The notes: generated from the letters alone by a model not told the origin. A stretch of DNA of 64,000 bases from an uncultured Spirochaetales bacterium (GCA_964428555.1 CAYRYS010000004.1:1-64000), one strand, 5' to 3'; counted from the stretch's first letter, positions 5,284 through 53,174 are shown. Made by a program: numbers and translations.

Positions 5284-5301
5284 GAAAAAGGAGGAAACAC
5301 T

Positions 5302-7121: not shown

Positions 7122-7191
7122 TTGCAGCCTAAGTATACAGAACAGATAGCCCAAGCATCTTATACTGATCATGCAGCACAGGAGGTGTACC

Positions 7192-7656: not shown

Positions 7657-7657
7657 G

Positions 7658-9220: not shown

Positions 9221-9341
9221 ATCATAAAGAGTATGCAAAAAAGCCTTGGGTGTCAACTGCAATTCAAAACCACTTTTACTTTAAAGAATTTATAATTGCG
9301 CTACTTTAGATCGGGACTTATACTGTTGGTAGGGGGCTTTT

Positions 9342-14354: not shown

Positions 14355-14378
14355 TGAGATTAGCAGGATTAAAAAGAC

Positions 14379-17363: not shown

Positions 17364-17915
17364 CTAGTGATAGCATATATCCCTGCTTATTACGCCGCTG
17401 TCCACATATTGAAAATCAGGATCAATTTTCTGCTGAGATACTACGCCTATCATATAATCTTCGGTATTTTGTAATAGATAGTTCCACAGAAATCTATCCT
17501 TACCCGTAAAGGCTCCGCGCCCTTTAATGCATATAGGTATTTCAAACTCCTTCAATGCCTGAGGAAGTCCGAATCCTAATGCTTTCCCGTACGACTCTTT
17601 TAAAGTCCAAATCCGGTAAAAAATATCAGCCTTTTCCCGCGCAGGGGCATTGTTCAATACGGCTTGTTCATAATCTGTCAGATATTTTGCCAGGGACGAA
17701 AAATCGATTATACGTATTTTTTCTATGTCACAGCCTAAAGTGCCCGAGCCGAGAGCACATACAACACGGGCATCAGAGTGAGCAAGAGAAAAAGACAGGG
17801 AAGAATTTACTATATAAGGTTTTCCCTTTCCAGTGGAGCGCAATGTATTTTCATCCAGAATAATATCAAACTCTTCCTTTAGCGCATGGTATAACAGTGC
17901 ATATGCTGTGAGCAT
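17364..17915 (-). CDS. 4'-phosphopantetheinyl transferase, Sfp type (ORF as called from first ATG; likely N-terminally longer, see findings)
   Basis: GKGKPYI...SLSHS, GCDIE, WTLKESYGKALG are the three PPTase motifs. Immediately downstream of the NRPS gene. Confidence 0.75.
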   Translation of the reverse strand: MLTAYALLYHALKEEFDIILDENTLRSTGKGKPYIVNSSLSFSLAHSDARVVCALGSGTLGCDIEKIRIIDFSSLAKYLTDYEQAVLNNAPAREKADIFYRIWTLKESYGKALGFGLPQALKEFEIPICIKGRGAFTGKDRFLWNYLLQNTEDYMIGVVSQQKIDPDFQYVDSGVISRDICYH

Positions 17916-18052: not shown

Positions 18053-18784
18053 TTATTTCGTTTCCTGTATTGTCTTACCTATTAAATCTATAATTTCTTC
18101 AGGCGCAAAGGGTTTTGCCAGAACTCCGGCTACTTCCATTTCTTTAAATTTGGTCAATGTTTCAGATTCTTCCTTCGCATAGGCTGTAATGACAATAGTA
18201 GGTACAAGTTTTCCAAGGGATTTTAACTTCAAATATACCTCAAGACCATTGAGTTCTGGTATTCTTACATCAAGAATCAGCAGCTCAGCACCGTTTTCTA
18301 CAACATGCTGTACAGCGTCATATCCTGTTTGAGCGATCTCAACCTGATATCCCTGCTCTTCCAGTAAATCCTTGAGAGAATCTGCGCAGCTTACATCATC
18401 TTCAACAAGCAGAATATACCCGTTTGGACAAATAGATTTGATAACAGAAAAAAGCACCTCTGTTTCAAAAGGCTTTCGGAGCACCTCTAAAGCACCGTGT
18501 TCCATTGCCTGCTCTAAAAGCTGTTCAACTTTATACCCTGTCATCATTACTACTTTACATTCAGGAACGTGTTTCTGTATTTCAAGAAAACTGTCAACTC
18601 CGTTTTTTCCGGGAAGCTTTACATCCATAAAAATAAGATCATAATGGGCATTCTGCGCCATCTCAATAGCTTCCTCTCCTGAAGGTGCTACATCTGCATT
18701 ATACCCGTTTATCTCTAAAATATCTGCTAATGTTTCAGCAAGATCAATATTATCATCTACAATTAAAAAGCGCATATTCATCAA
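18053..18784 (-). CDS. Response regulator with two tandem receiver (REC) domains and no output domain
   Basis: REC1: LIVDDNIDLAETL...DLIFMDVKLPGKNG. REC2: ILLVEDDVSCADSL...LLILDVRIPELNG...K. AAGGA RBS. Confidence 0.8.
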   Translation of the reverse strand: MMNMRFLIVDDNIDLAETLADILEINGYNADVAPSGEEAIEMAQNAHYDLIFMDVKLPGKNGVDSFLEIQKHVPECKVVMMTGYKVEQLLEQAMEHGALEVLRKPFETEVLFSVIKSICPNGYILLVEDDVSCADSLKDLLEEQGYQVEIAQTGYDAVQHVVENGAELLILDVRIPELNGLEVYLKLKSLGKLVPTIVITAYAKEESETLTKFKEMEVAGVLAKPFAPEEIIDLIGKTIQETK

Positions 18785-34230: not shown

Positions 34231-35925
34231 CTATTTTTCTCTGCAATAGGGCCAGGCAAGAACACCGCCTTCCATCACCTTCACATTAGTATATCCTTCA
34301 CCTTGAAGAAGCCTTGATGCCTCGTATCCACGGAGGGAAATCTTACAATAGGTAATAATCTCAGCATTTTTGTCTGCAGGCAGTTCCTCTAACCGGTCCC
34401 TAAGTTTTCCAAGGGGGATAAGCCTTTCACCTATTCCTAGACGCATCTGTTCAAACTCATCTGGTCCGCGCACATCGAGGATAAAAGCATCAGTACCTGT
34501 GTCTGCCATCTTTTTTACCTCTTTAGCGGAAATGCCAGTAAAGAGGCCGCGCATTTTATTCTGTAATACATGAGCAGTACCGATAAAATTATCGATCGCA
34601 AGCTGGAATGGAGGAGCATAAGGTAGATCAAGGTTCACTAATGTCTCAATACCAATACCCCCTTGAAGAGCAGTTGCAGCCTGGGCAACCTGCTTACTTA
34701 CGTCTCCCAAGCCAATGCATTGGAATCCAAGTAATTTTCCACTCTTCCTGTCCGCTACCATAGAGGAGATCAAGGGCTTACCCTGCATGAATCCAGGTTT
34801 GTCAGGTCCGGCAGTTACAATTGAGACAGGATCAAACCCCTCTGCTTTTGCGTTCTTTGCTGTCAATCCTGTTGAACCGACTGTATAATCAAAGACTTTG
34901 CAGATTCCTGTTTGTACTGTTCCAGTATACCTTACCTTTGGAGTATCTAATACTGCGTTCTCTCCAGCAACCCTTCCCTGAAGATTCGCTAGGTCTCCAT
35001 ATGGAGCTAGTACAGTTTTTCCTGTCTGTACCTGTTTAACTTCAATACAATCTCCTACAGCATAGATATCCTTCTTGCTTGTCTGGAGATATTCATCTAC
35101 CAGTATACCCTTTAAGTTCCCAATCTGTATTCCAGCATTCTTCGCAAGCTCAACATTCGGAGAAACACCAATTGCAATGACCGCCAGCTCGGCTGGGATC
35201 TCGGTTCCATTGGCAAGCTTGATCGCGGAAAGCCTTCCGCTTTCACCCAAGAACTCTTTGAGTCCATTGTTTGTAACAATATGGGCTCCCTTCGCCTTCA
35301 TATGGTTTTCAACCAGCATCGCAAGCTGGGGTTCCATAAAAGAAAGAATGTGAGGCAGCATTTCAACAACAATCACCTCTATGCCAGCAAGATGAAGCGC
35401 CTCTGCTGTTTCAACACCAATCAATCCTCCACCAATAACTACAGCCCTTTTGACCTTTCCTTCATCCCGCACCTTTCGCAGGTAATCAGCATCTTGGAGA
35501 GACTGTAATGTAGTAATGCCTTCTAGGTCGATTCCAGGTAAAGGTGGTATTTTAGGGTTTGCACCCGTTGCTATAATCAATTTGTCATACTGAATTGACT
35601 CCTCTTTCTTGTCCGGAATAGAACACACTGTTACGGTTTTTTCATCTACATTTATCCCAATTGCCTCAGTTTCTGTTTTTGCTGTAATATTCTTGGCATT
35701 CATGAAAAACTTCGGGTCACGCACCACTCCAGTGGGTGTGCTGATGAGTTTATTTCTGTCATCAAAAAAACCACCCACATAATATGGATAACCGCAGGAT
35801 GCCATAGACAGATACTTTTCTTTTTGTATAATAGTAATGTTAGCATTTGGATCCATTCTGCGGGCCCTGGCTGCCGCTTTCGGGCCTGCGGCGGATCCTC
35901 CTATTATAACAATTCGTTTTGCCAT
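34231..35925 (-). CDS. CoA-disulfide reductase with C-terminal rhodanese domain (FAD pyridine-nucleotide disulfide oxidoreductase)
   Basis: FAD motif VIIGGSAAGPKAA, redox Cys in SCGYPYY, second Rossmann VVIGGGLIGVE, C-terminal rhodanese with active-site CKISLRG. AAGGAGGAAAA RBS. Confidence 0.8.
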   Translation of the reverse strand: MAKRIVIIGGSAAGPKAAARARRMDPNANITIIQKEKYLSMASCGYPYYVGGFFDDRNKLISTPTGVVRDPKFFMNAKNITAKTETEAIGINVDEKTVTVCSIPDKKEESIQYDKLIIATGANPKIPPLPGIDLEGITTLQSLQDADYLRKVRDEGKVKRAVVIGGGLIGVETAEALHLAGIEVIVVEMLPHILSFMEPQLAMLVENHMKAKGAHIVTNNGLKEFLGESGRLSAIKLANGTEIPAELAVIAIGVSPNVELAKNAGIQIGNLKGILVDEYLQTSKKDIYAVGDCIEVKQVQTGKTVLAPYGDLANLQGRVAGENAVLDTPKVRYTGTVQTGICKVFDYTVGSTGLTAKNAKAEGFDPVSIVTAGPDKPGFMQGKPLISSMVADRKSGKLLGFQCIGLGDVSKQVAQAATALQGGIGIETLVNLDLPYAPPFQLAIDNFIGTAHVLQNKMRGLFTGISAKEVKKMADTGTDAFILDVRGPDEFEQMRLGIGERLIPLGKLRDRLEELPADKNAEIITYCKISLRGYEASRLLQGEGYTNVKVMEGGVLAWPYCREK

Positions 35926-38793: not shown

Positions 38794-41700
38794 ATGGGAA
38801 AATCTCAGTCAATCCAGAATAGGGCAAATGCTGTATATGTGGTAGGGATCGGTGCTTCCGCAGGAGGACTGGAGGCCTTACAGAGTTTTTTTAACAATGT
38901 TCCCTCAACGACAGGCATGGCTTTTGTTATTGTCCAGCATCTTTCCCCCAATTTTAAAAGTTTTATGAATGAACTGCTCGCAAAGCACACTACAATGCGA
39001 ATTAAAACAGCAGAAGATGAAACCGAAATTGAACCGAATACTATCTATCTAAATAGAAGAGATAAAAATATAGTTTGTGAGCAGGGAAAACTCATTCTAA
39101 AAGACAGAGATCCGGAAAAGATATTGAATTTACCGATTGATATGTTCTTTCATTCACTTGGTGAAGAATTCGCAGAAAAGGCAATAGCTGTTATACTCTC
39201 CGGTACCGGCTCAGACGGTTCCAGAGGAATCCGGACCATAAAAGAAGCAGGCGGAACCATAATGGTACAGGAGCCTACAACAGCACAATTCGACGGAATG
39301 CCAAACTCTGCAATTCGCACAAACCTCGCGGAATTCATACAAAGCCCTACTGAACTAGCAAAAATTCTAACTGACCTGCCCAAACGAAGCAATGCCCATG
39401 AGCGGCTTATTCAGGAAGGCAGTAACCAACTCTTTCACAAAATAATCGAAGAAATATCAGTATATTCAGGCAACAATTTCCATGAATACAAGAACAGTAC
39501 AATAGCTAGAAGGCTTCAAAAAAGGATGGACATACGGGGCATCGACACTTTGGAAGATTACCTGGCTTTTATGAAGGACAATGATAAAGAAAAGGAACTG
39601 GTAAGCAAGGAATTTCTTATTGGGGTTACCAACTTTTTTCGGAATCCCGAGGCGTTTCATACTCTTACCTCTAAAGTATTTCCCCGTTTGTTTAAGAAGG
39701 ATGATCAGACAAAAGTATACAGGATATGGATTTCCGGGTGTTCAAGCGGAGAGGAAGCCTATTCAATTGCTATTTTAATTGATGAATATTTGAAGAATAC
39801 TAAATCCAGAGCAGATTTCAAAATCTTTGCCACAGACATAGATAAGGAAGCAATCTATAAGGCTTCGGGGGGACATTATCCGATTAACATTTTAACAGAT
39901 GTCAATTCTGAACGTATCCAAAATTACTTTTTAAAAACCGGAGAACAATATAGAATAACAAAGCGAATCCGGGAAAAGATTGTATTCTCATACCATAATG
40001 TGCTTCAGGATCCTCCATTTATTCGAATGGACATGATTACCTGCAGAAACCTGCTTATTTACATGCAACCCAATGCTCAGGAACAGATTCTACATAAGTT
40101 TCAATTCGCTTTAAATCCAGGGGGATTCCTCTTTTTAGGGAACTCAGAAAATATAGGTAAACTAAAAGGATCTTTTGAAGAGATCGATTCAAAATGGAAG
40201 ATTTACCGTAATTCTGAAACGAGCGAGAAAGTTCCGAATTATGCAAATGCAGGATTTACTCCTGCAAGATATCAGAATAATTCCTACAAAAAAACCGAGT
40301 TTCCCTCAAAACCGTACCAAAAGCCCAAGAAGGGACAGCTTGATTATAATCAGCTCCTTGTAGACCGTTACGCTCCACCCTGTTTGATCGTTGACTCTGA
40401 CTTGTCCCTAAAATATATGCGCGGAAACATGGGAAAGTTCCTTCACATTCGGGAAGGTGCGTTTTCCGACTCCCTCCCTGATATGATAAATGATAACCTT
40501 ACTGCTATTATCCGTGACAGTATTAAACGGCTGCAAAGGAAAGATACTGATTCTGTACAGATAAACGATATTCCGGTTGAAAAGGACGACGGGAAGGTCT
40601 CTATAACCATCAAAATTCAGGAAGCAAGTCTTACACATGATGCAGGATTCATTATCTCAATCATTGGAGAGGAGGAACTCCCACAAGACCAGACAGTAAT
40701 AGAACAGCTTGACCTTGATGACCTTACGAAGAAGCGGTTTACTGAGATGGAAGACACAATTGCAACTCTCAAAGAAGAGAAGCAGAATATTGTCGAGGAG
40801 TTGGAAACAAGCAATGAAGAGCTTCAGTCCTCCAATGAGGAGCTCTTAGCTTCAAATGAAGAACTTCAAAGTACAAATGAAGAACTTCAGTCAGTTAATG
40901 AGGAGCTATATACAGTAAATACTGAGCTGCAGATCCGAAACAAAGAACTTTCTGAAGTAAACGCTGACATGGACAACCTATTAGCAAGCACTCAAATTGC
41001 AACCCTGTTTCTCGACTTCAATTTAAAGATCCGGAAATTCACTCCAGACCTAAAACGCATTTTTCGGTTGGAAGACTCGGACATAGGGCGCCCGATCCAT
41101 GACTTTGTTTCTAACTTTGTCGATGTTACAAGCAGCGACCTTATTGAACACGCTAAAACGGTCATGAAAACCAGGGATCCCCTTTTCCGGGAAGTTGAAA
41201 GTAAGGACGGAAGTTATTTCTTAAAGCGGATAACCCCTTTTCTTAAGGCTGACCAAAGCGTAGATGGATGTGTTATTACATTTATTGACATTACCCAGCT
41301 TCAGTCTGTAGAGCGGGAGGTAATTCATCAAAGCAAGAAAATAAAAGAGCAGAACAAAATACTCCAAAAAAAGAGCCAACAATTATATGATACTAACCAT
41401 GCCTTAAAGCAGAGCGAAGAACGGTTCAGAGGCACCTTTGAACACGCAGCTATAGGGATTGCCCATGTTAGCACCAAAGGCGAGATAATTCTCACAAATG
41501 AACGGCTCTGCAGTATTCTCGGCAGACCGAAAGAAAAGCTTCAAAAACAATATGTTCAGGATGTTATAACCTCTAAAGAGGAACCAAATATATCCGAGCT
41601 GCTCAATACATACCTCGAAAAGCATGAAACAATATCAGGTAAAGAGATCTGTGTTTCCCACCAAAAAGACAATAGCCAATGGATTGAGCTTACCATCTCT

Positions 41701-43242
41701 CCTCTAGAAAATGAGAACGGAAACCTTTTGTACCATATTGCTGTAATTGATGATATAACAGTCAGGAAAAAAACTGAGCAGCAACTTTTCCGGGCACATG
41801 AAACCCTGGAGCTCGCTTTTGATGCAGGCAAAATTGCGTGGTGGGACTGGAACTATCAATCCGGAGTTCTTGAATATGACAGCCGTAAAGCAACAATGCT
41901 TAACTATTCAAAAGAAGAGCTTGAGAACACCATGGAATGCTTCCGTTCCCGTGTTCACCCTGAGGACTTAGACAGTGTTGAGACATCTTTATCAGATTAT
42001 ATAAACGGAAAACTGCCTGCATACACTACCGAGTACAGGATAAAGAAAAAGAACGGAGAGTATCTTACTGTTTATGAACGTGCTGAAATTGTTAAAAGAG
42101 ACAGCAGAGGTCAGCCAAAGCGCATAATCGGAGTCACCTTTGATATTTCAGAGAAGAAGCTGGTAGAACAGGCATTGGCATCCAGTGAAGACCAGTTCAC
42201 CTTTCTGTTTGCCACAATGGCACAGGGGGTTGTGTATCACAATAAAGATGGAAGCATTATATCTGCGAATGCGGCTGCAGAGCAGATACTCGGACTATCA
42301 AGGGACCAGATACTAGGCAAGAAATCGATTGACCCCAACTGGCACTGTGTACATGAAGACGGCAGCACATTTCCCGGAGAAGAGCACCCCGCAATGGAGA
42401 GCTTACGTACAGGCAAACCGGTAAAGGACGTTACAATGGGAGTTTTTAATCCCAGGGACGGGGGCTATAAATGGATAAAAGTAAATACTAAACCAATCTA
42501 TCGAAATAATGATGAAGAGCCGGATATGGTGTATGCAAGTTTTGAAGATATTTCAGGATTAAAGGAAAAGGAATTCGAGCTTGAAAAAGCGGTCCGGGAA
42601 AAGGAAGTACTCCTTAGGGAGATACACCATAGAGTAAAAAACAACCTGCAAAAAATCATCAGCCTTCTGAACTTGCAGACATCTAAGATTGATGACCCTT
42701 ACCTCAGCAGCGCTTTCGAGGAATCAAAAAACAGGATTTACACAATGGCGCTCATTCATCAAAAACTGTATTTCTCAGAGGATTTGGCTTCTGTTAAGTT
42801 TTCCGAGTATGTTAAAAGCCTTGTACTTGATCTTTTAGGCATGTATTCAGTGAACGATTCTATAGAAGCGGATATACAGATAGAAGAAGCACAGGGTATT
42901 GATATAGATACCATTATCGCAAACGGACTAATAATAAACGAGCTTGTTTCTAACGCTGTTAAATACGCCTTTCCCAGGAACAAACAGAACTGCAGGATAA
43001 GTATCTCCGGGGAGATCCTGAACCATCAGAAATACCAGGTAACCTTTCAGGACAATGGCAGAGGCTTTCCGGAAAACTTCGAGGAAAACAATCAATTAAG
43101 CCTTGGTATGCGGCTTATTAATGCGCTATGCACCCAGCTCCGCGGTTCTATTTCCTTTAAGAACAGGAAGGGAGCAATGGTACTATTCACCTTCCCCATA
43201 AATGTTAATGAACAGGCCTATTTAAAACCGAAAAGAGAATAG
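38794..43242 (+). CDS. Multidomain chemotaxis-type signalling protein: CheB methylesterase - CheR methyltransferase - coiled coil - PAS x3 - HWE/HisKA_2 kinase - HATPase
   Basis: CheB catalytic domain VVGIGASAGGLEALQSFF...VIVQHLSPNF...GTGSDGSRG. CheR domain FFRNPEAFHTL, WISGCSSGEEAYSIAILI. Heptad repeats NEELQS. HWE-type H-box EIHHRVKNNLQKIISLLNLQ. GAGGTGA RBS. Confidence 0.85.
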   Translation: MGKSQSIQNRANAVYVVGIGASAGGLEALQSFFNNVPSTTGMAFVIVQHLSPNFKSFMNELLAKHTTMRIKTAEDETEIEPNTIYLNRRDKNIVCEQGKLILKDRDPEKILNLPIDMFFHSLGEEFAEKAIAVILSGTGSDGSRGIRTIKEAGGTIMVQEPTTAQFDGMPNSAIRTNLAEFIQSPTELAKILTDLPKRSNAHERLIQEGSNQLFHKIIEEISVYSGNNFHEYKNSTIARRLQKRMDIRGIDTLEDYLAFMKDNDKEKELVSKEFLIGVTNFFRNPEAFHTLTSKVFPRLFKKDDQTKVYRIWISGCSSGEEAYSIAILIDEYLKNTKSRADFKIFATDIDKEAIYKASGGHYPINILTDVNSERIQNYFLKTGEQYRITKRIREKIVFSYHNVLQDPPFIRMDMITCRNLLIYMQPNAQEQILHKFQFALNPGGFLFLGNSENIGKLKGSFEEIDSKWKIYRNSETSEKVPNYANAGFTPARYQNNSYKKTEFPSKPYQKPKKGQLDYNQLLVDRYAPPCLIVDSDLSLKYMRGNMGKFLHIREGAFSDSLPDMINDNLTAIIRDSIKRLQRKDTDSVQINDIPVEKDDGKVSITIKIQEASLTHDAGFIISIIGEEELPQDQTVIEQLDLDDLTKKRFTEMEDTIATLKEEKQNIVEELETSNEELQSSNEELLASNEELQSTNEELQSVNEELYTVNTELQIRNKELSEVNADMDNLLASTQIATLFLDFNLKIRKFTPDLKRIFRLEDSDIGRPIHDFVSNFVDVTSSDLIEHAKTVMKTRDPLFREVESKDGSYFLKRITPFLKADQSVDGCVITFIDITQLQSVEREVIHQSKKIKEQNKILQKKSQQLYDTNHALKQSEERFRGTFEHAAIGIAHVSTKGEIILTNERLCSILGRPKEKLQKQYVQDVITSKEEPNISELLNTYLEKHETISGKEICVSHQKDNSQWIELTISPLENENGNLLYHIAVIDDITVRKKTEQQLFRAHETLELAFDAGKIAWWDWNYQSGVLEYDSRKATMLNYSKEELENTMECFRSRVHPEDLDSVETSLSDYINGKLPAYTTEYRIKKKNGEYLTVYERAEIVKRDSRGQPKRIIGVTFDISEKKLVEQALASSEDQFTFLFATMAQGVVYHNKDGSIISANAAAEQILGLSRDQILGKKSIDPNWHCVHEDGSTFPGEEHPAMESLRTGKPVKDVTMGVFNPRDGGYKWIKVNTKPIYRNNDEEPDMVYASFEDISGLKEKEFELEKAVREKEVLLREIHHRVKNNLQKIISLLNLQTSKIDDPYLSSAFEESKNRIYTMALIHQKLYFSEDLASVKFSEYVKSLVLDLLGMYSVNDSIEADIQIEEAQGIDIDTIIANGLIINELVSNAVKYAFPRNKQNCRISISGEILNHQKYQVTFQDNGRGFPENFEENNQLSLGMRLINALCTQLRGSISFKNRKGAMVLFTFPINVNEQAYLKPKRE
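40804..40956 (+). repeat. Intragenic tandem 21-nt (7-codon) repeats encoding a (S/T/V)NEELQS coiled coil
   Basis: Six or seven consecutive 21-nt units, aatgaagagcttcagtcctcc / aatgaggagctcttagcttca / aatgaagaacttcaaagtaca and so on, visible by eye. Confidence 0.6.
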
Positions 43243-43406: not shown

Positions 43407-45281
43407 ATGAGAAAAAATATAACATTTCGTTTAATCACAATATTTCCACTGCTTGCTTTTATTCTGCTCTATGCAGCGGGACTACAGTTTTACCTTCCAG
43501 GAATACACACATCTAACATCCATATTGCTTTGGGAATTGCAGGCTTGGCAGGCCTTGGTTTAATTATTTTGTACGGGACAAGCACAATTCGCTTAATAAA
43601 AAGGTTCTGCAATATTCACCGGGACACTGATGACTTCCTCCATTGCCTTGAAAAGCTCGGAGCAATGCCGCTTAAGACATTCCTTTTTTTTATTATTGTT
43701 GTACTACTAATGTCTGTGGCTGTTACCTCTGGGTCTATAATTTTTTTCTCTGTAAATGCCTTTCAGATAATCATGTTTTCTCTGAACTTGTTCAGCTATG
43801 CTATGCTCTTCGCAGCAGTTGTATATATGCTCCTGGATAAATGGCTCTTGGGGTATCTTTTAGAACAAAAAGTAGCAAGGTACCCGCATAACTTAAAAGA
43901 GGACAGACAATATAAAAAGATTATTATTATCCCGATTTTCATGAGCTTAATGACAATAACAACAACTATTTCTTTTATCTTCCTGGAGCTTTCATCAGCA
44001 GGCACCCAGGGATTTACCACCAGTGAAGCCCTAATCGGCTACCTCGCTCAGCGAGTCATCGTGCCTTGGGTACTCTATTTTTCTATTGTTTTTCTCCTGG
44101 TAATGATCTGGGCAAAGAACACAAAGCGGCTTTATAATTCAGTAATTGATAGGATGAACAAAATCCTTTCTTCTGAAAAGGATATGACAGGAGATGTTTA
44201 TATCGGTTCTGTAGATGAAATAGCGTCCATTGCCGGTGACATCAATACTTTTTCGAGCATACTCAGATCAAGCTTAAAAAACATCCGCGACACTTTAAAC
44301 GAACTGGATACCTTTATTACCCAGCTTTTTTCAAGCGTAGACAAAGCTTCATCAAAGGTAGCCCAAATAGGAGAAACCATTTCCAATACCACCAAAAAGG
44401 TGGATACTCAGAACCATACTGCAGATACCGCAGTGAATGCAGCTATTTCAATTATAAATAAAATGAAAGAAATGAACAGCATAGTGGATAATCAGAGTTC
44501 CAGTGTAACAGAATCGACTGATGCAATCGAAGAAATAATTGCAAATGTAGAGGAGACAGCAAAGGATACAGAAAACTTATCAGCCCAGGGTAAGTCCCTT
44601 ACAGAAATGTCAAACAAGGGAGAGACAAGCATCCAGAATACAATTGCTGCTGTCGGCAGAATTTCAGAAATGTCCCACAGCCTTGTAGAAGTGAATAACC
44701 TTATTTCCGCAATTGCAAGCCAGACAAATATGCTTGCCATGAATGCAGCAATCGAGGCAGCCCACGCAGGGGAATACGGTAGAGGATTTGCTGTGGTGGC
44801 GGATGAAATTCGAAAGCTTGCTGAAACAACGTCCACCCAAATTAAAACCAGCAAGGACCAACTAAAAGAGATTGCGAGCGAAATTGAAGATGCACTTACT
44901 ACTGCACAGCATTCAGGAACAGCGTTTACAAATATTCAGGAAACCATCCAGTCCATGGACACTGCTTCCAACAGTATCAGCGAAGCAATGAAGCACCAGG
45001 CACAGACCAATTCACAGATACAGAAAACGATTAATTCTACAAAAGAGCTTACTGAAAACCTAACAGATATTTCCCACGAACTGACAAAAGAAGGCAACTC
45101 CCTGCTTGAATCTATGCGCAACATGAGTACCCATTCAGGTGAAGCTCTCCAGGATGCTTCCAGTATGCAGGATACGAATACATCCCTACAAAGCAGCATG
45201 GAAGACCTAAATGACCTTTCCTTTCAGACAAAACAGCTGCATAGAAAGGTTATGGAATTGATAAACACATACAAAATTTAA
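43407..45281 (+). CDS. Methyl-accepting chemotaxis protein with a polytopic (about 6 TM) N-terminal membrane module
   Basis: Highly conserved signalling-domain motif [36 protein letters not shown]-like segment after the last TM helix. Confidence 0.85.
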
Positions 45282-45291
45282 CCAAACCCGA

Positions 45292-46689
45292 TTAATGCAG
45301 AAATTTCTTTACAATACTGAGATTGCGCTTTGAGTACGGCGGATACCGGAAAGGCAGGTCCAGCCAGCGCGCTTTCTTTACTATAGATTTCTTATTGCTA
45401 AAGGTATCGAAACTGTACCATCCATGGTATTTTCCCATACCTGAATTTCCGACCCCGCCAAAAGGCAGCTTTGGGTCTGCAAGATGAATAATAGTGTCGT
45501 TAACGCAGCCTCCGCCGAAACGTATGCTTTCAGTTACCTGTTTCTCTATCTTTTTTGAAGAGGTGAACAGATATAAGGCAAGCGGGCTGGGACGGGTGCT
45601 AACAAAGGATATTACTTCCTGAATATCTGTGAAGGTAAGCACAGGAAGTATTGGTCCAAATATTTCCTCGCACATGACTTGGTCTTCCCTGGGGTCCACT
45701 TCTTCCAATACAGTAGGCGCAATGTATCGCTGAGAATCATCCCATTCTCCGCCGAATACCGTCTTACCTTCAGACAGGAAATCCTTTAATGCCTTGTACT
45801 GTTTATCATTGATAATTCTTGAGTAATCATGACTGTTTTTTGGGTCAGGACCATAAAATTCGTGTACGGTATTTTTCATTGCAGCAAGAAGTGGGTCTTT
45901 AACAGATTCATGAACATATAAATAGTCAGGGGCCACACAGGTCTGACCTGCATTCATGAATTTACCCCAGGTAATACGTTTTGCAGCAAGCTCAATATCC
46001 GCTGTTTCGTCTACAATGCACGGACTTTTTCCGCCCAGCTCAAGGGTTACAGGTGTAAGGTGCTTGCTCGCAGCTTCCATAACGATTTTCCCAAGAAACG
46101 GGCTGCCGGTAAAGAAAATATAATCATGTTTCCGTGATAGTAATGCCTGGTTTACTTCCCTGCCCCCTGTAAATACAGCAATGAAGGATTCAGAGAAGTA
46201 GTCTTCCAGCATCTGCCGAATCACATCTGTAGTATTTTCAGAATAATGAGCAGGTTTTGCAATTATAGTGTTTCCCGCTGATAGCGCGCCGATAATCGGA
46301 TCCATCATAAGTTGGAACGGATAGTTCCATGGAGCAATAATAAGGGCCCTGCCATAGGGTTCACAGAGGATGCGTCCTTTTGACGGGAAATGAGCCATCC
46401 CGATTGAAACCTTCTTCGGCTTCATCCATTTTTTTAGATGTTTTATATGATACCGGATCTCCTCTAATACAATACCGACTTCAGTTGAATAAGATTCAAA
46501 CTCAGGCTTATAAAAGTCCGCGGCCAAGGCCTTTATAATCTTTCCCTCATATTCTTTAATTGCTTTATACAGGGTTTCCAACATGGCCTTACGGAAACCA
46601 AAGGAATGGGTCGAACCGTTCCGAAACACATGGTCCTGCTCAGCAATGACATGATCCAGGCGTTTTTCCAATTCACTTTTTTCAGACAT
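45292..46689 (-). CDS. NAD(P)-dependent aldehyde dehydrogenase (class-3-like ALDH)
   Basis: ELGGKSP catalytic-Glu motif, FMNAGQTCVAPDY catalytic Cys, Rossmann FTGSPFLGKIV. GAGG RBS. Confidence 0.8.
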   Translation of the reverse strand: MSEKSELEKRLDHVIAEQDHVFRNGSTHSFGFRKAMLETLYKAIKEYEGKIIKALAADFYKPEFESYSTEVGIVLEEIRYHIKHLKKWMKPKKVSIGMAHFPSKGRILCEPYGRALIIAPWNYPFQLMMDPIIGALSAGNTIIAKPAHYSENTTDVIRQMLEDYFSESFIAVFTGGREVNQALLSRKHDYIFFTGSPFLGKIVMEAASKHLTPVTLELGGKSPCIVDETADIELAAKRITWGKFMNAGQTCVAPDYLYVHESVKDPLLAAMKNTVHEFYGPDPKNSHDYSRIINDKQYKALKDFLSEGKTVFGGEWDDSQRYIAPTVLEEVDPREDQVMCEEIFGPILPVLTFTDIQEVISFVSTRPSPLALYLFTSSKKIEKQVTESIRFGGGCVNDTIIHLADPKLPFGGVGNSGMGKYHGWYSFDTFSNKKSIVKKARWLDLPFRYPPYSKRNLSIVKKFLH

Positions 46690-46806
46690 AATAAACCTCG
46701 CATAATACTTTAGTGTATAGTATGCTAAATTCTCTGTCTAAACACAAACAGAAATACGTAAAAATCAGAAAAATGTATGGATTTGTTGTATAGCCTAAAA
46801 AGGCAG

Positions 46807-49800
46807 CTAATCTGTCTCTCCTGTTTCCACTTTTTCCAATACAGCAGCACCATAGGTAAATCCGCCTCCAAAGGCAGTCAGTCCACAATATCTGCCTTGT
46901 GGGGGAAGTATGTCCTTCAGGCACATGGGTATGGAACTGGAGGATGTATTTCCAAGGTTTGCAATATTGCTATACACCTTTTCCTTCGGTGCCTTCAGCT
47001 TCTGACGGACTGCGTTAATTATTCTCTGGTTTGCCTGGTGCGGCACCACAAGATCCAGCTGGTCAGGAGTAATCTCTGAGTTCTCGCATGCGGTTATAAG
47101 CATTTTCCGCATTGCAGCAACTGCTTCCAGAAACACCTTTGTTCCTTCCATTTTCACCGTATTCTCATTCAGCAAAGGAACAAACAGAGAGGATCCATCC
47201 TCTCCTTTTGCGGATGTAACAGGTCTATGTATCCACCACTTCCCCCGGGCTTGATGGTTTTTACCAAGCACAAGGGTTGCAGTTGCTGCGTCCCCGAAAA
47301 TCGGGGCTGTTCCCGGATCAGATGCATCGAGCTTACAGGAAAGGGTCTCTGTTGTTACCAGGAGGACCTTAGCATCAGGATTGCTTCTACAGACATCGTA
47401 TGCTGCCTGCAGCCCGTATATGTACCCTGAACATGCTGCATTAATGTCATAGGCCTGACATTCAAGATCACTGTCATTTGATACTGCATACTGTATTCTG
47501 CACGCCATGGAAGGGGTAATTGACTCAGGAGTTCCTGTTGCACAGATTATACAGTCAATCTCCTGTGGTCTTATTTGCTGCTGCGCAAGAAGCTCTTTTG
47601 AAACATCCACTGCAAGGGAAAGAGCGGACTCACCGTTTTCTACCCAATACCGAGTCTGGATTCCTGTGCGCTTGACAATGTCCTTTGGTTCCCATGCGCT
47701 GCAGAGAGCAGATATTTCCTGGTTCGTAACCAGACGGGAACCTGTTTTTCCGCATACCCCGGCGATTACTGCAACCCTGCTTCTATCTGCATCATCAACT
47801 GCGGTCACAGCATTGGATGAAGGTTTCTCCGGTTTTGTTATTGATATAACCGGTGTACCAGGATTTTCAGATGTTACCGGCTTTAGGGAAACCTCTCCTA
47901 TTGTGCGCACTGATGCAATCGGTGTTCCCACATCCACTACATCTCCATCTGGATGGAATATTTCTTCAACAGTGCCGGAAACAGATGCCTGCAGCTCAAT
48001 TGCAGCTTTGTCAGCTTCCAGGTCAGCAAGTACATCACCTTCGGAAATCTCATCCCCAGGTTTTACCTTCCACTCAATAATAATGATTGTCTCATCTGAC
48101 GGGCTCGATCCGATTGCTTCAATTTTCTGTATGCCAGAGGATTCTTCATCTTGCTTCTCCCAAGTTACCGAACCTCCAAGCATACGGAGACTTTCCTCAA
48201 GTAAGCGTTTATACGAAGGGAGCACCTCAAGCTGGTTAGCAAAGTTACAGGGAACATAGGTATCGCCCCTGGCAACCCTGGATATTTTTGCATTAACCCC
48301 GGATTCAGCAACCAGTGCAGCCAGCTCAGAACCGACACCGCAGGATATATTGTCTTCATGGCTAATTATCAAGTGTCCGGTTTTTCTGCATGACTGGATT
48401 ACTGTATCCGCATCCAATGGAGATAGGCTGCGCATATCTATAACTTCTGCTAATATACCGGCTTCCTGTAAAGCAGAGGCTGCTTTTTCACATAAGCCGA
48501 CTGTATTTCCCCACCCCGCAAGGGTAATGTCATCACCTTGTGTAACAATACGGGCACTCCCGATAGGGACAATCTGTTTTTCTATGTCTTTGCTTGTGGC
48601 AGTACGTTTTTCATTCAATAGGTTCTTAGGATAAAAAAACAAGGTCGGCCGTTTTGACTTAAGAGCTGCATGTAATAGCCCTGCTGCATCTGCTGCTGTT
48701 GAAGGCATGAATACATCTACCCCCGGCGTGTGGACTGCAATCGATTCCAAGCTGCTGGCATGAAAGGGACCAAGGCCTGGTTTATATCCCCCTGAGGTTA
48801 TCATCAGAATTGCAGGACATGTCCATCCTCCGTCAGTTCTCCAGTACATACTGCCCATTTCCGAGATAATCTGATTAAAGGCAATCGGCAGGAAATCCGC
48901 AAATTGGATAAACCCTATTGGCTGTCCCCCTGCAAGTGCCCTTCCAACAGTTACCCCTGCAATAGTTGCTTCAGAAAGCGGGGAATTCTCTACCCTGCCC
49001 GGATATTTAGAGGAAAGCCCCCGTGTAACACCAAAAACATCGCCTTTTGGATCAGCAATATCCTCTCCAAATAAACTAAGGGTTTTATTCTTCTCAAGCT
49101 CTGTATCAAGTACAGTACGTAAGGCCTCGATCATGGTAACAGACCGGTCCTTATCAGTACCCCGATATTCAATAGCCTTATCCTCTAAATCCGCAGGGAG
49201 CTCTGCTTTTGCAGTAAACACCGGGCTTGGTTCTTTTGACAGCTGGGAAATCTTTGCATCCTCTCTGAGGGTTTTCCGGAGTGAGTCTTCATCGTCTTGT
49301 ATCTGTTTTTCATCTATACCATTATCAACCAGCCAGTTTCGCAGATTTGCTACAGGATCACCGGTTTGCTGCACTGCGGTTATTTCATCTGAACCACGGT
49401 AAACCGTATGGTCATCAGCATTCGTATGGCTTGTAAGCCTGTCTGTTTCCATTACAACTATTGCCGGCATCCTGTTAGTGCGCATCTTCTCAACAACATT
49501 CTGGAAAGGCGCTGATAGGCTCTCAGGTTTTCTGCCATTCACCCGGGTAATCGGGAGGCTGTAGAACTGATCGCTTGCGCCTGAGGGGCAGTGAAAAAAG
49601 GTATTGCACCCCGTACGTGTTGAAATAGCAAATCCATTATCTTCTATAAGAAAAAGTACAGGCAACTCAGCACGGACAGCATGGGCTATTGCTTCCAGGA
49701 CTTCTCCCTCCTGGGTCATACCGTCTCCAAGGGAGCAAAGTACAATTGGTGCACCGGGGTTGTCTTTTATCTCAGCAGCAGCTCCAGCAGCCTGGAGAGC

Positions 49801-50145
49801 GCTGTTTCCAACAGGACCAACTAAGCTGAGAATGTTAAGCTCAGGGGCGCTCATATGAGCTGACATCTGACGCCCCCTAGAATGGGAAGCATCTTTGCAA
49901 AAAAGGCTGTGAAAGAACATCTTCGGAGTTATCCCCCTAGCAAGCATAAGGGCTTTATCTCTATAATGACAATGGAGGTAATCAGCAGGAGCAAGAAACT
50001 GATTCAATACAGCAGAACCTTCATGCCCTGCTCCGGAAACATGGAAAAAAGCTTCCCCACGTTTTGTATACTCAAGTTCAAGCTGGTCAATCACCTTTGC
50101 TGTAAACATATGCAAATAGCTTTTGTATAATTCTCCGGCATTCAT
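46807..50145 (-). CDS. Fusion protein: 2-oxoacid dehydrogenase E1-alpha + E1-beta (TPP-dependent) + lipoyl carrier domain + 3-oxoacyl-ACP synthase III (FabH-like)
   Basis: E1-alpha TPP motif GDGMTQEGEVLEAIAHAVRAELPVLFLIEDNGFAIS. E1-beta LSLFGEDIADPKGDVFGVTRGL...GFIQFADFL. Lipoyl-Lys motif DVLADLEADKAAIELQ. KAS III AYDINAACSGYIYGLQAA, IFGDAATA, LVVPHQANQRIIN, LGNTSSSSIP, AFGGGFTYGAAVL. AAAGGAGCG RBS. Confidence 0.8.
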   Translation of the reverse strand: MNAGELYKSYLHMFTAKVIDQLELEYTKRGEAFFHVSGAGHEGSAVLNQFLAPADYLHCHYRDKALMLARGITPKMFFHSLFCKDASHSRGRQMSAHMSAPELNILSLVGPVGNSALQAAGAAAEIKDNPGAPIVLCSLGDGMTQEGEVLEAIAHAVRAELPVLFLIEDNGFAISTRTGCNTFFHCPSGASDQFYSLPITRVNGRKPESLSAPFQNVVEKMRTNRMPAIVVMETDRLTSHTNADDHTVYRGSDEITAVQQTGDPVANLRNWLVDNGIDEKQIQDDEDSLRKTLREDAKISQLSKEPSPVFTAKAELPADLEDKAIEYRGTDKDRSVTMIEALRTVLDTELEKNKTLSLFGEDIADPKGDVFGVTRGLSSKYPGRVENSPLSEATIAGVTVGRALAGGQPIGFIQFADFLPIAFNQIISEMGSMYWRTDGGWTCPAILMITSGGYKPGLGPFHASSLESIAVHTPGVDVFMPSTAADAAGLLHAALKSKRPTLFFYPKNLLNEKRTATSKDIEKQIVPIGSARIVTQGDDITLAGWGNTVGLCEKAASALQEAGILAEVIDMRSLSPLDADTVIQSCRKTGHLIISHEDNISCGVGSELAALVAESGVNAKISRVARGDTYVPCNFANQLEVLPSYKRLLEESLRMLGGSVTWEKQDEESSGIQKIEAIGSSPSDETIIIIEWKVKPGDEISEGDVLADLEADKAAIELQASVSGTVEEIFHPDGDVVDVGTPIASVRTIGEVSLKPVTSENPGTPVISITKPEKPSSNAVTAVDDADRSRVAVIAGVCGKTGSRLVTNQEISALCSAWEPKDIVKRTGIQTRYWVENGESALSLAVDVSKELLAQQQIRPQEIDCIICATGTPESITPSMACRIQYAVSNDSDLECQAYDINAACSGYIYGLQAAYDVCRSNPDAKVLLVTTETLSCKLDASDPGTAPIFGDAATATLVLGKNHQARGKWWIHRPVTSAKGEDGSSLFVPLLNENTVKMEGTKVFLEAVAAMRKMLITACENSEITPDQLDLVVPHQANQRIINAVRQKLKAPKEKVYSNIANLGNTSSSSIPMCLKDILPPQGRYCGLTAFGGGFTYGAAVLEKVETGETD

Positions 50146-50523
50146 AAAAACGCTCCTTTATTAACTATATCTTTTGGTAAAATGAGTCTAGATTCAAACA
50201 CAGAGGCTTTCGCTTTTTTAAATTTCAACTCTTCTCTATTCATCTTTTAGCACATATTAGAGAAACAACAGGCTTAGGTCAAGTTTATTCATAAGCTTCA
50301 ATAATAATTCCAGTGGTGTTTTCATTCTTGACTCTCGCGCATCTTTTTGACTATTGTATTATGAAATCTCATTATTTTCAGATTTTATTAGATTTATTAA
50401 ATGGATGATGTACAATTTAAATAAATTAGAATGAACAGGCAGAAAAATGAAAAAAAGCATTGGATTTGTTCTTTGTATCATAGTATCAGTAATATCCTGT
50501 TATATTGACCCCCACCGCCGGTA

Positions 50524-52071
50524 TTGGGTGTTAATAATTTTGAAGCTAGCGATGGTACATACACAGACCATATCGAGCTAGTATGGGAAGAAGACAAGAC
50601 TTCAACCGTTGATCCATTTGAGTACCATATATATAGGGCTTCAGTAGGGATTGATTTTACAGAAGCCGAATTGATTGGTACAACCTCCGAAAATCTTTTC
50701 AGAGACAATGCAATAGAAATTGGAAGGGTGTATCAATACTACCTTCTTCCAGTAACCAAGGCATATCAAGGAATACCTGAAAAAGACCATGGTTATGCTG
50801 GTTCTGTTGACACTGGTATTCAAAATATCTCAACATCAATTGGGTCCATTGAAGGTGCAGTGGAAATTACTTGGGACCCTATCGCAGGGGCCCGAAGATA
50901 TTATATCTCTCGAAGAGAAGATCCTCAACAGGACTGGAGGTTCATAAGCGAACAAACAATTTGTAAGTATTTTGATACCCAAACTGTAACAGGAAGGGTA
51001 TATGAATACTGTATAGCCCCTGCATTTTCCGAAGGCCTTGGACAATTTAGCAGTCCCCAACAAGGGTACAATATGCTTGGAACAACAAGCGCTCCTTATA
51101 TTGACGCAGCAGCTGGTGATGGTTTTTCATTATTAGTGGACAGTACAGGTAGTATATTTGCGACTGGAAATAATAACTTCTCCCAGACAGGTTTAACCGA
51201 CAGTATTGGATATGATCAGTGGACTAACACAGGGTTAACAGGGATCTGTGACGTAGATGCTGGAAACCAGCACGCAATTGCCTTAGATTCCTCTGGAAAT
51301 GTTTATATTACTGGAGGAAATTACTTCGGTCAGTTAGGTAATGGTTCATATCAGAACATCCAAGGCTGGACAGAAACAGCCCTCCCAGAAACAGTGACTG
51401 CTGTTTTCACGGATTTCTACAGAAGCTTTGCTGCAGACAGTGAAGGCAGACTCTGGGCTTGCGGAAACAATGACACCTATCAAATAAATAATTCAGAGGA
51501 TGAACATATTCTTACCTGGACTGAGGTACTCACACTTTCACAAGGGGTTATTGAACAAGTAATTATAAACGAAGATCGTACTATTGCAGTTACATCAACT
51601 GGAGATGCATACAGCTCAGGGGTTGAAGGATGGGTGAACATCCCAATTTCTCAAACTGTTTCCCAAGCCGCAGAAGGTAATGGTATTGCTCTTTTTCTCC
51701 TCAGTTCAGGAGAAGTATGTTACGAAAATGGAGATCAGCTTACTATTCAAGGACTCACGCCCCCAGTTCAGAGCCTTTTTTCGCATAACAACAGGATTTT
51801 TATTCTTGACGCAAATAACACGTGTTTTGTGAGTGGAGAAAATATACACTACCAATCCGGCCATAATCTTTATGGTTTTGAGAATACGGGATGGCAGATA
51901 ACTCTCTTACCGCAGGAGTGTGTAATCTATGCAAGCTCTGTTGGTGAATATCACACTCTTTTACTCTCACAAGAGCATGGTGTCTTTTATTTTGGCAGAG
52001 GAACAGAAGGAGAATTTGGAGAATGGACAGAAACAAACACAAAAGTACAACAAGGCATTCTTGGCAGGTAA
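50524..52071 (+). CDS. RCC1-repeat beta-propeller surface protein with N-terminal Fn3-like modules; apparently frameshifted at its 5' end (signal peptide in another frame at 50447)
   Basis: Repeated RCC1-like GxNxxGQLG blades (NYFGQLGNGS, GNNNFSQTGL). Fn3-like segments HIELVWEEDK / AVEITWDPIAG. The ORF-track start is TTG. Confidence 0.6.
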   Translation: MGVNNFEASDGTYTDHIELVWEEDKTSTVDPFEYHIYRASVGIDFTEAELIGTTSENLFRDNAIEIGRVYQYYLLPVTKAYQGIPEKDHGYAGSVDTGIQNISTSIGSIEGAVEITWDPIAGARRYYISRREDPQQDWRFISEQTICKYFDTQTVTGRVYEYCIAPAFSEGLGQFSSPQQGYNMLGTTSAPYIDAAAGDGFSLLVDSTGSIFATGNNNFSQTGLTDSIGYDQWTNTGLTGICDVDAGNQHAIALDSSGNVYITGGNYFGQLGNGSYQNIQGWTETALPETVTAVFTDFYRSFAADSEGRLWACGNNDTYQINNSEDEHILTWTEVLTLSQGVIEQVIINEDRTIAVTSTGDAYSSGVEGWVNIPISQTVSQAAEGNGIALFLLSSGEVCYENGDQLTIQGLTPPVQSLFSHNNRIFILDANNTCFVSGENIHYQSGHNLYGFENTGWQITLLPQECVIYASSVGEYHTLLLSQEHGVFYFGRGTEGEFGEWTETNTKVQQGILGR

Positions 52072-53174
52072 AAAGCTGTATATATTTGTTTCTCGTAAGT
52101 GGCTTCTTACTGTTTTTTAACTCATGCTACATTGCATTCTTTTCACCACCAAATGGTGAAAATATAGAGTTTATTGAAACAATAGATTTATATGACTATC
52201 AGACAGATATCTCCTTTCCAATGGAGTATTCTCAAGGATATCTTACATTCAGGACTAGTTTAGATAATCTATTATTCGTAGATATCGAAAACTATTCAAC
52301 TACCCAGCTCCACGAAGGAATTTCGAATTTCTATTCAGTCATAGTAGAGGATAATACCGCATATATTACAAGTGATCGAAGCCTCATCACATACCATATC
52401 AACAATGAAATAACGACTCTCAGGGAGTACTCAGAAAATATTTTTGATTCATGGATTAATAATACAGCGTTATTTGACGGATCAATAATCTGGGCAAACA
52501 AGGGGTCTGATATAAATGGAATTGGTTCATACTCAATACAAACAAGTACTTTTGAAATGCTTCCTGAATTCCTTCACCAGAATGTACAAGAAGTATATAC
52601 GGATGATACCTATCTTTATGTGCTAACAACAGAGAATTATAACTGGGAGGTGGATGTATACCAAATCGATGATGTAACCCGTAAAATTGCAAGTATACAA
52701 GTTCCTAATGTCATAGAGACATACCGTCCTCTCCCCTACTTCCAAGAAATGAACGATGAGATTGTTCTTCAAACCTCTTACGGCTCAATTTACCATATAA
52801 TTATTGATAATAATACTGTACACCTGAATGAAATAGATGATTCAGTCGCTACTATCGCAGCAATAGTAGAGGATACCATTGTTAGAATAGAAGACTACAC
52901 AATTCGCTGTACAAACCTTGATGGAAGAACTGTGTGGCAGAGAAGCCTTTCAGATGAACTAAGGATGCTATATTATTGCGGTTCTTTTCAAAACCTGTTT
53001 TTATTTTCAGATGGTAAACATTTCAGGTGGTTGGATCAAGAAACAGGTGAAGAATTCGCAGGTCCTGTATTGCAATTTGCAACCTCCTATTCATTTATAG
53101 ACACATTTCAAAATGGAAACCTTATATATATCATCTCTAGAAATAGAATTGATATCTATGAACTAACTCAGTAA
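52023..53174 (+). CDS. Hypothetical lipoprotein / membrane-anchored protein (beta-propeller-like)
   Basis: N-terminal basic region, hydrophobic helix, then a Cys (FLLFFNSC). No catalytic motifs. The start is uncertain because it overlaps the upstream gene by 49 nt. Confidence 0.45.
   Translation: MDRNKHKSTTRHSWQVKSCIYLFLVSGFLLFFNSCYIAFFSPPNGENIEFIETIDLYDYQTDISFPMEYSQGYLTFRTSLDNLLFVDIENYSTTQLHEGISNFYSVIVEDNTAYITSDRSLITYHINNEITTLREYSENIFDSWINNTALFDGSIIWANKGSDINGIGSYSIQTSTFEMLPEFLHQNVQEVYTDDTYLYVLTTENYNWEVDVYQIDDVTRKIASIQVPNVIETYRPLPYFQEMNDEIVLQTSYGSIYHIIIDNNTVHLNEIDDSVATIAAIVEDTIVRIEDYTIRCTNLDGRTVWQRSLSDELRMLYYCGSFQNLFLFSDGKHFRWLDQETGEEFAGPVLQFATSYSFIDTFQNGNLIYIISRNRIDIYELTQ

Follow-up and report, generated by a model that had tools for sequence, protein, structure and literature searches.

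Can a single polypeptide convert a 2-oxo acid into the first intermediate of fatty-acid synthesis without the intermediary of a free acyl-coenzyme A (acyl-CoA)? The question is raised by a gene within 64,000 nucleotides of DNA from an uncultured Spirochaetales bacterium (GCA_964428555.1 CAYRYS010000004.1:1-64000; the window), in which one uninterrupted open reading frame (ORF; 46807-50145, minus strand, 1112 codons plus stop, ATG start) encodes an E1alpha-E1beta-lipoyl-FabH fusion. A Shine-Dalgarno sequence, AAGGAG, can be read directly on the same strand at 50153-50158, 7 nucleotides 5′ of the ATG (50145-50143). A first-pass annotation had claimed four modules in this order within a single 1112-codon ORF, and a Pfam scan, in which all six matches exceed the curated cut-offs, confirms it. 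The E1 alpha module (49222-50109, minus strand as are all parts of the ORF; residues 13-308) matches E1_dh (PF00676; 8.4e-36, 123.9 bits, cut-off 22), and the E1 beta module (48226-49143; residues 335-640) matches Transket_pyr (PF02779; 335-511, 90 bits) followed by Transketolase_C (PF02780; 529-640, 100.8 bits). The lipoyl domain (47902-48129; residues ~673-748) matches Biotin_lipoyl (PF00364; 687-745, 1.6e-18, 66.8 bits). Beyond a linker (47773-47901; residues 749-791), delimited with the family alignment and an AlphaFold2 (AF2) model, the chain ends in a FabH domain, that is, a 3-oxoacyl-acyl carrier protein (ACP) synthase III (KAS III; 46834-47772; residues 792-1104), which was placed with NCBIfam, HMMER alignments, and Foldseek and matches ACP_syn_III (PF08545; 899-962, 61.6 bits) and ACP_syn_III_C (PF08541; 1020-1104, 87.8 bits). 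The E2 acyltransferase, the absence of which had likewise been asserted, is indeed missing: the E2 catalytic domain (PF00198) gives no match in the fusion protein at E ≤ 0.01 in the Pfam scan, the same method detecting it in a Streptomyces analogue considered at the end of this text. All of the catalytic motifs quoted earlier are present, namely GDG (140-142), EADKAAIEL (710-718), NAACSGY (902-908), VPHQAN (1034-1039), and LGNTSSS (1063-1069). Judged by its sequence, the protein belongs with the E1, lipoyl-domain, and KAS III superfamilies and not with the E2s. It probably takes the primer for lipid synthesis directly from a 2-oxo acid, without CoA.

An unusual domain order in a metagenomic contig may stem from chimeric assembly or read-through, an explanation to which practically no chance is left here. 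The identical protein is encoded on a second contig and a single-residue variant (Cys798Thr) on a third, the guanine-cytosine content is even along the ORF (0.45-0.495), domain junctions included, and the linkers between the modules are conserved across the family. A search of 5.8 billion proteins returned at least 120 full-length clusters at 90% identity (1096-1176 amino acids (aa), 54-60% identity) that carry the same six Pfam domains with the modules unbroken. Because these homologues are independent and the identical protein recurs on a second contig, an assembly fusion is excluded and the fusion is genuine. The variable residue 798 (codon 47752-47754), Cys in the window and Thr in the near-identical database representative P0001, lies where the FabH domain begins, a stretch of poor conservation.

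The full-length clusters derive mostly from Spirochaetia, Alkalispirochaeta, and Salinispira metagenome-assembled genomes (MAGs), and one from candidate division KSB3, and a scan of species-representative genomes adds homologues at 38-56% identity from Rhizobium, Devosia, another member of the Hyphomicrobiales, Sumerlaeia, Verrucomicrobiales, and two Planctomycetota. The fusion family thereby extends over at least six phyla, isolates included. Cultured Rhizobium carriers include R. lusitanum and Rhizobium sp. BK313, the Rhizobium 90% cluster numbers 146 members, and RefSeq proteins from isolate genomes (e.g., WP_092573285.1 and WP_133705023.1) carry the full fusion; no full fusion was found on plasmid records. 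With the lipoyl and FabH part as HMMER query, 40 of the best 150 representatives at 50% identity are four-domain full-length proteins, the most divergent of them sharing 31% identity with the query, so that the family comprises at least 40 clusters at this level and is phylogenetically broad. Database names for these proteins are generic—"thiamine pyrophosphate-dependent enzyme", "2-oxoisovalerate dehydrogenase E1 component", or "beta-ketoacyl-ACP synthase 3"—and the impression recorded earlier that the domain order had not been described agrees with a full-text literature search, covering few subscription journals, in which no published description of the fusion was found. The design is conserved and seemingly undescribed. 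In one Planctomycetia MAG (L013, 9696-13294), a homologue is split into ORFs of 582 aa, two short ones, and one of 183 aa, reflecting either a pseudogene or long-read indel errors. Conservation was counted in a family alignment of 129 sequences, in which C905, H1036, N1066, R1041, K713, G140, G142, N170, H240, H462, and the pair Y61-R62 are all invariant.

The E1 half appears to retain what is needed to decarboxylate a 2-oxo acid and to acylate a lipoyl group. The thiamine pyrophosphate (TPP) motif G140-D-G142...N170 has D at position 141 in 93 sequences and E in 36, Y61-R62 is the carboxylate-binding pair of E1 alpha, and both active-site histidines for reductive acylation of lipoamide, H240 in alpha and H462 in beta, are present. 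His240 is located in an R-L-x-x-H-T-N-A-D-D loop that aligns with the H-S-x-x-D-D loop of the E1 alpha subunits of Thermus thermophilus and human branched-chain 2-oxo acid dehydrogenase (BCKDH), and E1 beta carries a family-specific insertion, D-P-K-G-D-V-F-G, at 365-372. Foldseek superimposes the E1 beta module on 1um9_B with a TM score of 0.92, and PDB E1 beta chains match the fusion protein with 165-187 bits. E1 alpha scores 110 bits against the branched-chain enzyme of T. thermophilus and 100 against the human one, compared with 63-68 for pyruvate E1 alpha and only 53 for Pseudomonas putida BCKDH; the best NCBIfam E1 models are of the pyruvate dehydrogenase (PDH) type, every one of them below its cut-off, and no equivalog cut-off is reached. 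The N-G-F/Y-A-I-S-T and H-T/S-x-x-D-D...Y-R motifs resemble those of BCKDH, and Phe87, which caps the primer pocket in Escherichia coli FabH, is replaced by Thr or Ser in the family. By bit scores alone, the E1 part appears closer to branched-chain than to pyruvate E1, and the substrate is most likely a branched-chain 2-oxo acid, i.e., 2-oxoisovalerate, 2-oxoisocaproate, or 2-oxo-3-methylvalerate. Circumstantial support for the mechanism proposed below comes from Salinispira, MAGs of which carry the fusion gene: Salinispira pacifica makes iso-C15:0 (11.7%), anteiso-C15:0, iso-C13:0, and iso-C14:0, and amino acids do not serve it as growth substrates (PMC4511686).

The lipoyl domain places Lys713 (codon 48007-48009) in an E-A-D-K-A context, as opposed to the M-K-M context of the biotin type. 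In the AF2 model, which was built from a 78-sequence alignment and has a mean predicted local distance difference test (pLDDT) score of 90.2 and a predicted TM score of 0.69, strands 705-710 and 715-719 flank this residue at the tip of a beta-hairpin. Sequence and model together make Lys713 the predicted site of lipoylation. The linker toward FabH starts with a conserved L-K-P-x-T-x-E-x-P-G-x-P-x-I stretch and continues with a variable one rich in Ala, Gly, and Ser, the region corresponding to residues 748-802 measuring 50-104 aa across the family; pLDDT falls below 50 solely at 772-786, a stretch predicted to form a disordered tether from the lipoyl domain to FabH. Among solved structures, no chain spans beyond the E1 half or the FabH domain.

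What distinguishes the C-terminal domain from an ordinary FabH is the acyl-donor site rather than the catalytic center. The domain exceeds the cut-off of the FabH-subfamily model NF006829 in NCBIfam (262.6 versus 249 bits), stays below that of TIGR00747 (216.6 versus 292.1), and superimposes on 2ebd in Foldseek with a TM score of 0.93 and a root-mean-square deviation of 2.0. Its triad, Cys905 (47431-47433), His1036 (47038-47040), and Asn1066 (46948-46950), aligns with C112, H244, and N274 of E. coli FabH (reference sequence identical to 1hn9_A), and the assignment of these residues made earlier holds on alignment to solved FabHs. R1041 corresponds to the ACP-docking Arg249, and its neighbors R1047 and K/R1049 are conserved; the position of E. 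coli K214 is not, and is Leu in the window. In E. coli FabH, the adenine of CoA is stacked between Trp32 and Arg151 (PMC4606726). In a HMMER alignment, all five solved FabHs carry E-W and D-R at the respective sites, where the window protein reads K-D822 and D-P944, i.e., Asp822 at the position of Trp32 and Pro944 at that of Arg151. In the family alignment, Trp at the first column and Arg at the second each occur in 0/129 sequences. Among the 150 representatives, the two residues are found together in none of the 69 that are lipoyl-linked versus 43 of the 81 that lack a lipoyl domain (Fisher p = 3e-15, with no phylogeny correction), and 64 of the 69 have neither, whereas Arg249, His244, Asn274, and Cys112 are retained with and without lipoyl linkage. 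Many of the "stand-alone" sequences devoid of the pair are N-terminal fragments with the family signature F-G-D-A-A-T. On this sequence evidence, the FabH domain falls outside the canonical definition of an acyl-CoA site: the CoA-adenine site is lost, and the residues for malonyl-ACP binding and condensation are kept.

Split and extended relatives indicate how the modules belong together and what the FabH domain makes. In L024 (6049-9476), a fused E1alpha-beta gene (651 aa) overlaps a lipoyl-FabH gene (491 aa) by 4 nucleotides; its E1 is 32% identical to the E1 part of the window protein and has the DPKG insertion and the HTNxDD loop in common with it. L022 (2419-5940) and L023 have an E1alpha-beta gene and, 13 nucleotides beyond it, one for a lipoyl domain, a peripheral subunit-binding domain (PSBD), and FabH (P0223; E3_binding, 32.4 bits versus a cut-off of 23.7)—by its sequence, an E2 layout the acyltransferase core of which has been swapped for a KAS III. 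In L021, an E1alpha gene precedes an E1beta-lipoyl-FabH gene, possibly because of a frameshift. In every split form, the lipoyl domain sits with FabH and not with E1. The extended relative P0162 (L019, 10001-15829; GCA_029777335.1, JAKOSN010000236.1) is a chain of 1942 aa with the order E1a-E1b-lipoyl-FabH-ketoreductase (KR)-ACP, of which the C-terminal 240 aa and an inter-domain region have no Pfam match, and appears from its sequence to be a one-chain mini-synthase leading from a 2-oxo acid to a 3-hydroxyacyl-ACP. An ACP gene lies 6 nucleotides after the lipoyl-FabH gene of L020, and in L026 (105-2341) and L027 (44-2030), contigs that end too soon to show upstream genes, stand-alone FabH genes of the family type overlap a dedicated ACP gene, with a methyltransferase gene next in L026. 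The latter FabHs have no Trp32/Arg151 pair and share an F-G-D-A-x-x motif. Since KR and ACP are fused, or an ACP gene is adjacent, in these relatives, the FabH product is likely to be an ACP-bound beta-keto thioester.

Taken together, these features make it moderately probable that the fusion is a self-contained primer synthase in which KAS III replaces the E2 core and receives the acyl group directly from the lipoyl arm. E1 alpha-beta, probably as a homodimer equivalent to alpha2beta2, would decarboxylate the 2-oxo acid using TPP and then reductively acylate the lipoyl group on Lys713 of its own chain. In the acyl-donor tunnel of FabH, the S-acyl-dihydrolipoyl arm would stand in for the acyl-CoA pantetheine arm and hand its acyl group to Cys905. 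Malonyl-ACP, docked at Arg1041, would be decarboxylated with the help of His1036 and Asn1066, and Claisen condensation would yield a branched 3-oxoacyl-ACP for type II fatty-acid synthesis. Finally, an E3 (dihydrolipoamide dehydrogenase) encoded elsewhere would reoxidize the arm in trans with NAD+, as for the glycine-cleavage H protein. A direct hand-off from lipoyl to the cysteine of KAS III, bypassing CoA, had been proposed in the first-pass annotation; the split variants, the relatives with KR and ACP, and the loss of the adenine site strengthen this proposal, short of proving it. Chances are about even that acyl-dihydrolipoyl-lysine is the ketosynthase donor and that the fusion serves as the main initiator of iso and anteiso chains in many free-living Spirochaetota and as an accessory one in other carriers, among them the Rhizobium tropici group and Planctomycetota.

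Several observations weigh against direct transfer or narrow it. Five of the 69 lipoyl-linked representatives keep either Arg151 or Trp32, and 13 apparently complete stand-alone FabHs also lack the pair, and the signature therefore seems to mark non-CoA donors generally and not lipoyl specifically; the dedicated ACP neighbors of such stand-alone FabHs suggest that it marks protein-borne donors in general. The Pfam scan detects no PSBD (E3_binding, PF02817) in the fusion protein. In the AF2 model, disorder is confined to about 15 residues (772-786) and the connection from E1 beta to the lipoyl domain is mostly ordered, so that the lipoyl arm, on such a short tether, may have less freedom than that of a classical E2. 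A lipoate ligase and the E3 gene lpd, for which a search had been recommended, are found neither in the 64-kb window nor beside the homologues, and the same is true of acpP. The Streptomyces analogue (L025) retains an E2 catalytic domain for transfer from lipoyl to ACP, which shows that other systems employ a dedicated catalyst. An ordinary fabH is present in rhizobia, where the fusion is therefore accessory and not the sole initiator.

Three other explanations have to be weighed against direct lipoyl-to-FabH transfer. The fusion might confer proximity only, a separate E2 core making free acyl-CoA that the fused FabH then uses, so that joining the domains would co-localize or co-regulate the steps. 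The route from BCKDH to FabH via acyl-CoA is the textbook one in Bacillus, Staphylococcus, and Listeria, and in Photorhabdus BkdABC a separate E2 occurs beside a fused E1 and a ketosynthase (bioRxiv 10.1101/2022.10.20.513026). Moreover, 108/129 family members retain Arg36, the residue through which E. coli FabH touches the pantetheine phosphate of CoA. However, the adenine-stacking pair is absent throughout the family, the fusion protein has no PSBD with which to dock on an E2 core, no E2 gene adjoins the fusion or its relatives in about 20 loci, and in the lipoyl-PSBD-FabH relatives FabH occupies the catalytic position of an exact E2 layout. We regard proximity without direct transfer as unlikely. 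Very unlikely, in our view, is a FabH domain acting as a transacylase only, moving the acyl group off the lipoyl arm and onto holo-ACP or CoA with no condensation step and leaving the first elongation to another ketosynthase. Invariant His1036 (decarboxylation) and Asn1066 (oxyanion), a FabH-subfamily score above the NCBIfam cut-off, and the KR between FabH and ACP in P0162, which is only sensible if a beta-keto group forms, all speak for condensation, despite an acyl-CoA:ACP transacylase side activity of E. coli FabH, the existence of KAS III-like acyltransferases in natural-product pathways, and the lipoyl-to-ACP transfer ahead of the ketosynthase in the Streptomyces loading module.

The third explanation leaves the mechanism intact and changes its substrate or its purpose: the primer would be acetyl, derived from pyruvate and giving acetoacetyl-ACP, or the product a specialized metabolite instead of branched-chain membrane lipids. 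It draws on the PDH-type NCBIfam E1 models, sub-cut-off as they are, on the best PDB match of E1 beta (1ik6), which is labeled pyruvate dehydrogenase, on the small biosynthetic units that the KR-ACP-extended and the ACP- or methyltransferase-linked relatives look like, and on Rhizobium, which is not known to be rich in branched-chain fatty acids. A pyruvate-derived primer is at odds with the 100-110 bits of E1 alpha to branched-chain enzymes against 63-68 to PDH, with the BCKDH-like E1 motifs, and with the exchange of the Phe87 cap for Thr or Ser; a specialized metabolite is at odds with a gene that stands alone, without a biosynthetic cluster around it at any full-length locus. This variant is, on balance, quite unlikely. 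For the window gene, solitary and widespread as it is, nothing points to the use in polyketide or secondary metabolism envisaged earlier, which may apply to the KR-ACP-extended relative.

The surroundings of the gene offer no conserved partner. As reported in the first-pass annotation, an aldehyde dehydrogenase (ALDH) gene (45292-46689, minus strand, 465 aa; Pfam Aldedh, 2e-83) lies 117 nucleotides downstream of the fusion on the same strand. Among NCBIfam models, the MdlD-like one (benzaldehyde dehydrogenase) fits it best, with 427.6 bits, under the cut-off of 550. The spacer contains a promoter-like hexamer pair and no terminator-like site between the ORFs, the nearest terminator-like match (46801-46817) being on the opposite strand and overlapping the fusion stop codon. 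In the ±10 kb neighborhoods inspected around each match, ALDH adjoins the homologues at none of 13 genome loci and none of 5 metagenome loci; the two genes are neighbors in the window only, and a role for ALDH as a component of the system was rejected. No gene neighborhood is conserved across phyla. Within the 64-kb window, neither lipoate synthase nor E2 nor fab genes are found, and the sole flavoprotein disulfide reductase encoded there, a Pyr_redox_2 protein (34231-35925, minus strand), is unlikely to be the E3, as it has a C-terminal rhodanese domain and resembles CoA-disulfide reductase.

Some neighborhoods are shared within lineages. In the Rhizobium tropici-group loci L003, L004, L006, L008, and L009, a gene for a 331-aa FA_hydroxylase-family protein is located upstream on the same strand (about 8755-9755), immediately next to the fusion in four loci and separated from it by one gene in L008 (Rhizobium sp. 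BK313), and PspA-like and flotillin/SPFH genes follow the fusion in 4/5 of them, not in L006 (about 13550-17140). A link to membrane lipids is possible, and these neighbors are treated as lineage synteny. The same applies to the gene for a 905-aa aconitase that is always divergently adjacent in the Alkalispirochaeta-like loci L014-L018 (about 5157-7911), a position taken in the window by an RCC1-repeat protein gene and other genes: at 50524-53174 (plus strand), an RCC1-repeat beta-propeller protein of 515 aa with a TTG start overlaps a 383-aa ORF without a Pfam match, both divergent from the fusion. Elsewhere in the window, a 2928-aa bimodular nonribosomal peptide synthetase (NRPS; 18853-27639, minus strand) contains three condensation stretches, two adenylation and two carrier domains, and a terminal NAD_binding_4 reductase by Pfam, with genes for a 4′-phosphopantetheinyl transferase and a response regulator beside it (17364-17915 and 18053-18784, both minus strand); the starter condensation domain, together with reductive release, points to an N-acyl dipeptide aldehyde or alcohol as its product. 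A 1482-aa chain combining a CheB methylesterase, a CheR methyltransferase, several PAS domains, and a HisKA_2/HATPase kinase (38794-43242, plus strand) is followed by a methyl-accepting chemotaxis protein gene (43407-45281, plus strand).

To our knowledge, all known initiation of type II fatty-acid synthesis proceeds from acyl-CoA (FabH, FabY) or through decarboxylation of malonyl-ACP (MadA/MadB). If direct transfer takes place, the fusion would represent a third initiation logic, with the primer supplied by the lipoyl arm in a previously unrecognized hand-off from carrier to synthase; a ketosynthase would be able to take its primer from lipoyl-lysine, and branched-chain lipid priming would be uncoupled from the CoA pool. 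Oku and Kaneda, in 1988, and Kaneda, in 1991, are said to have found 2-oxo acids to be better primers of branched-chain fatty-acid synthetase than acyl-CoAs, an old observation for which such an enzyme would provide a molecular basis. A single gene sufficient to turn a 2-oxo acid into a branched 3-oxoacyl-ACP would, in addition, be of use for branched-chain lipid and fuel engineering. The hypothesis is directly testable, because the fusion is present in culturable, genetically tractable Rhizobium.

Although parts of this scheme have precedents, none of the systems known to us joins them in the same manner. The actinobacterial OdhA/KGD, in which E1o is reportedly fused to an E2 catalytic domain, likewise demonstrates that the domains of E1/E2 complexes have been reshuffled in evolution; its partner remains an E2 acyltransferase that yields acyl-CoA. 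Peng and colleagues, writing in PNAS in 2012, are said to have described two-carbon loading in the quinocarcin and naphthyridinomycin pathways by a transketolase-like E1, a lipoyl-E2, and an ACP. These pathways share with the fusion a TPP-made acyl group that passes from a lipoyl arm to a carrier-protein assembly line and not to CoA, and they differ from it in using an E2-type acyltransferase, an ACP acceptor, and a ketose donor, with no ketosynthase as the direct acceptor. The Bkd system of Photorhabdus, a dedicated operon, also couples a branched-chain dehydrogenase to a ketosynthase for a beta-keto-iso-acyl unit. Its BkdB is reportedly a normal E2 and BkdC a separate ketosynthase, with acyl-CoA or ACP intermediates, whereas the fusion has no E2 core and tethers the ketosynthase covalently to the lipoyl domain. 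With the BCKDH and FabH of Bacillus, Staphylococcus, and Listeria, the fusion has in common a heterotetrameric-type TPP-dependent E1, a lipoyl-lysine carrier, the FabH triad and ACP-docking Arg, and the overall conversion of a 2-oxo acid to a 3-oxoacyl-ACP. In contrast to these separate enzymes, it is a single chain without E2 core, PSBD, or Trp32/Arg151, and free acyl-CoA is presumably skipped.

The nearest architectural analogue found is the streptogramin-type locus L025 (8929-20196) on a Streptomyces xanthii plasmid (NZ_CP061282.1). Here, an E1alpha-beta gene, the product of which is 35% identical to the window E1, precedes a megasynthase annotated as an NRPS and beginning with lipoyl-E2 catalytic-ACP-ketosynthase (KS)...KR, in a cluster that also contains pabB, chorismate-mutase-, prephenate-dehydrogenase-like, and methyltransferase genes. 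By its domain order, this looks like a loading module with a starter derived from a 2-oxo acid. Both systems would prime from a 2-oxo acid, and in neither is a step through free CoA apparent; in L025 a lipoyl domain stands at the head of a carrier-protein-dependent synthase. The Streptomyces protein, however, keeps an E2 catalytic domain and an ACP ahead of a type I KS, whereas in the spirochaetal fusion the lipoyl domain leads straight to KAS III.

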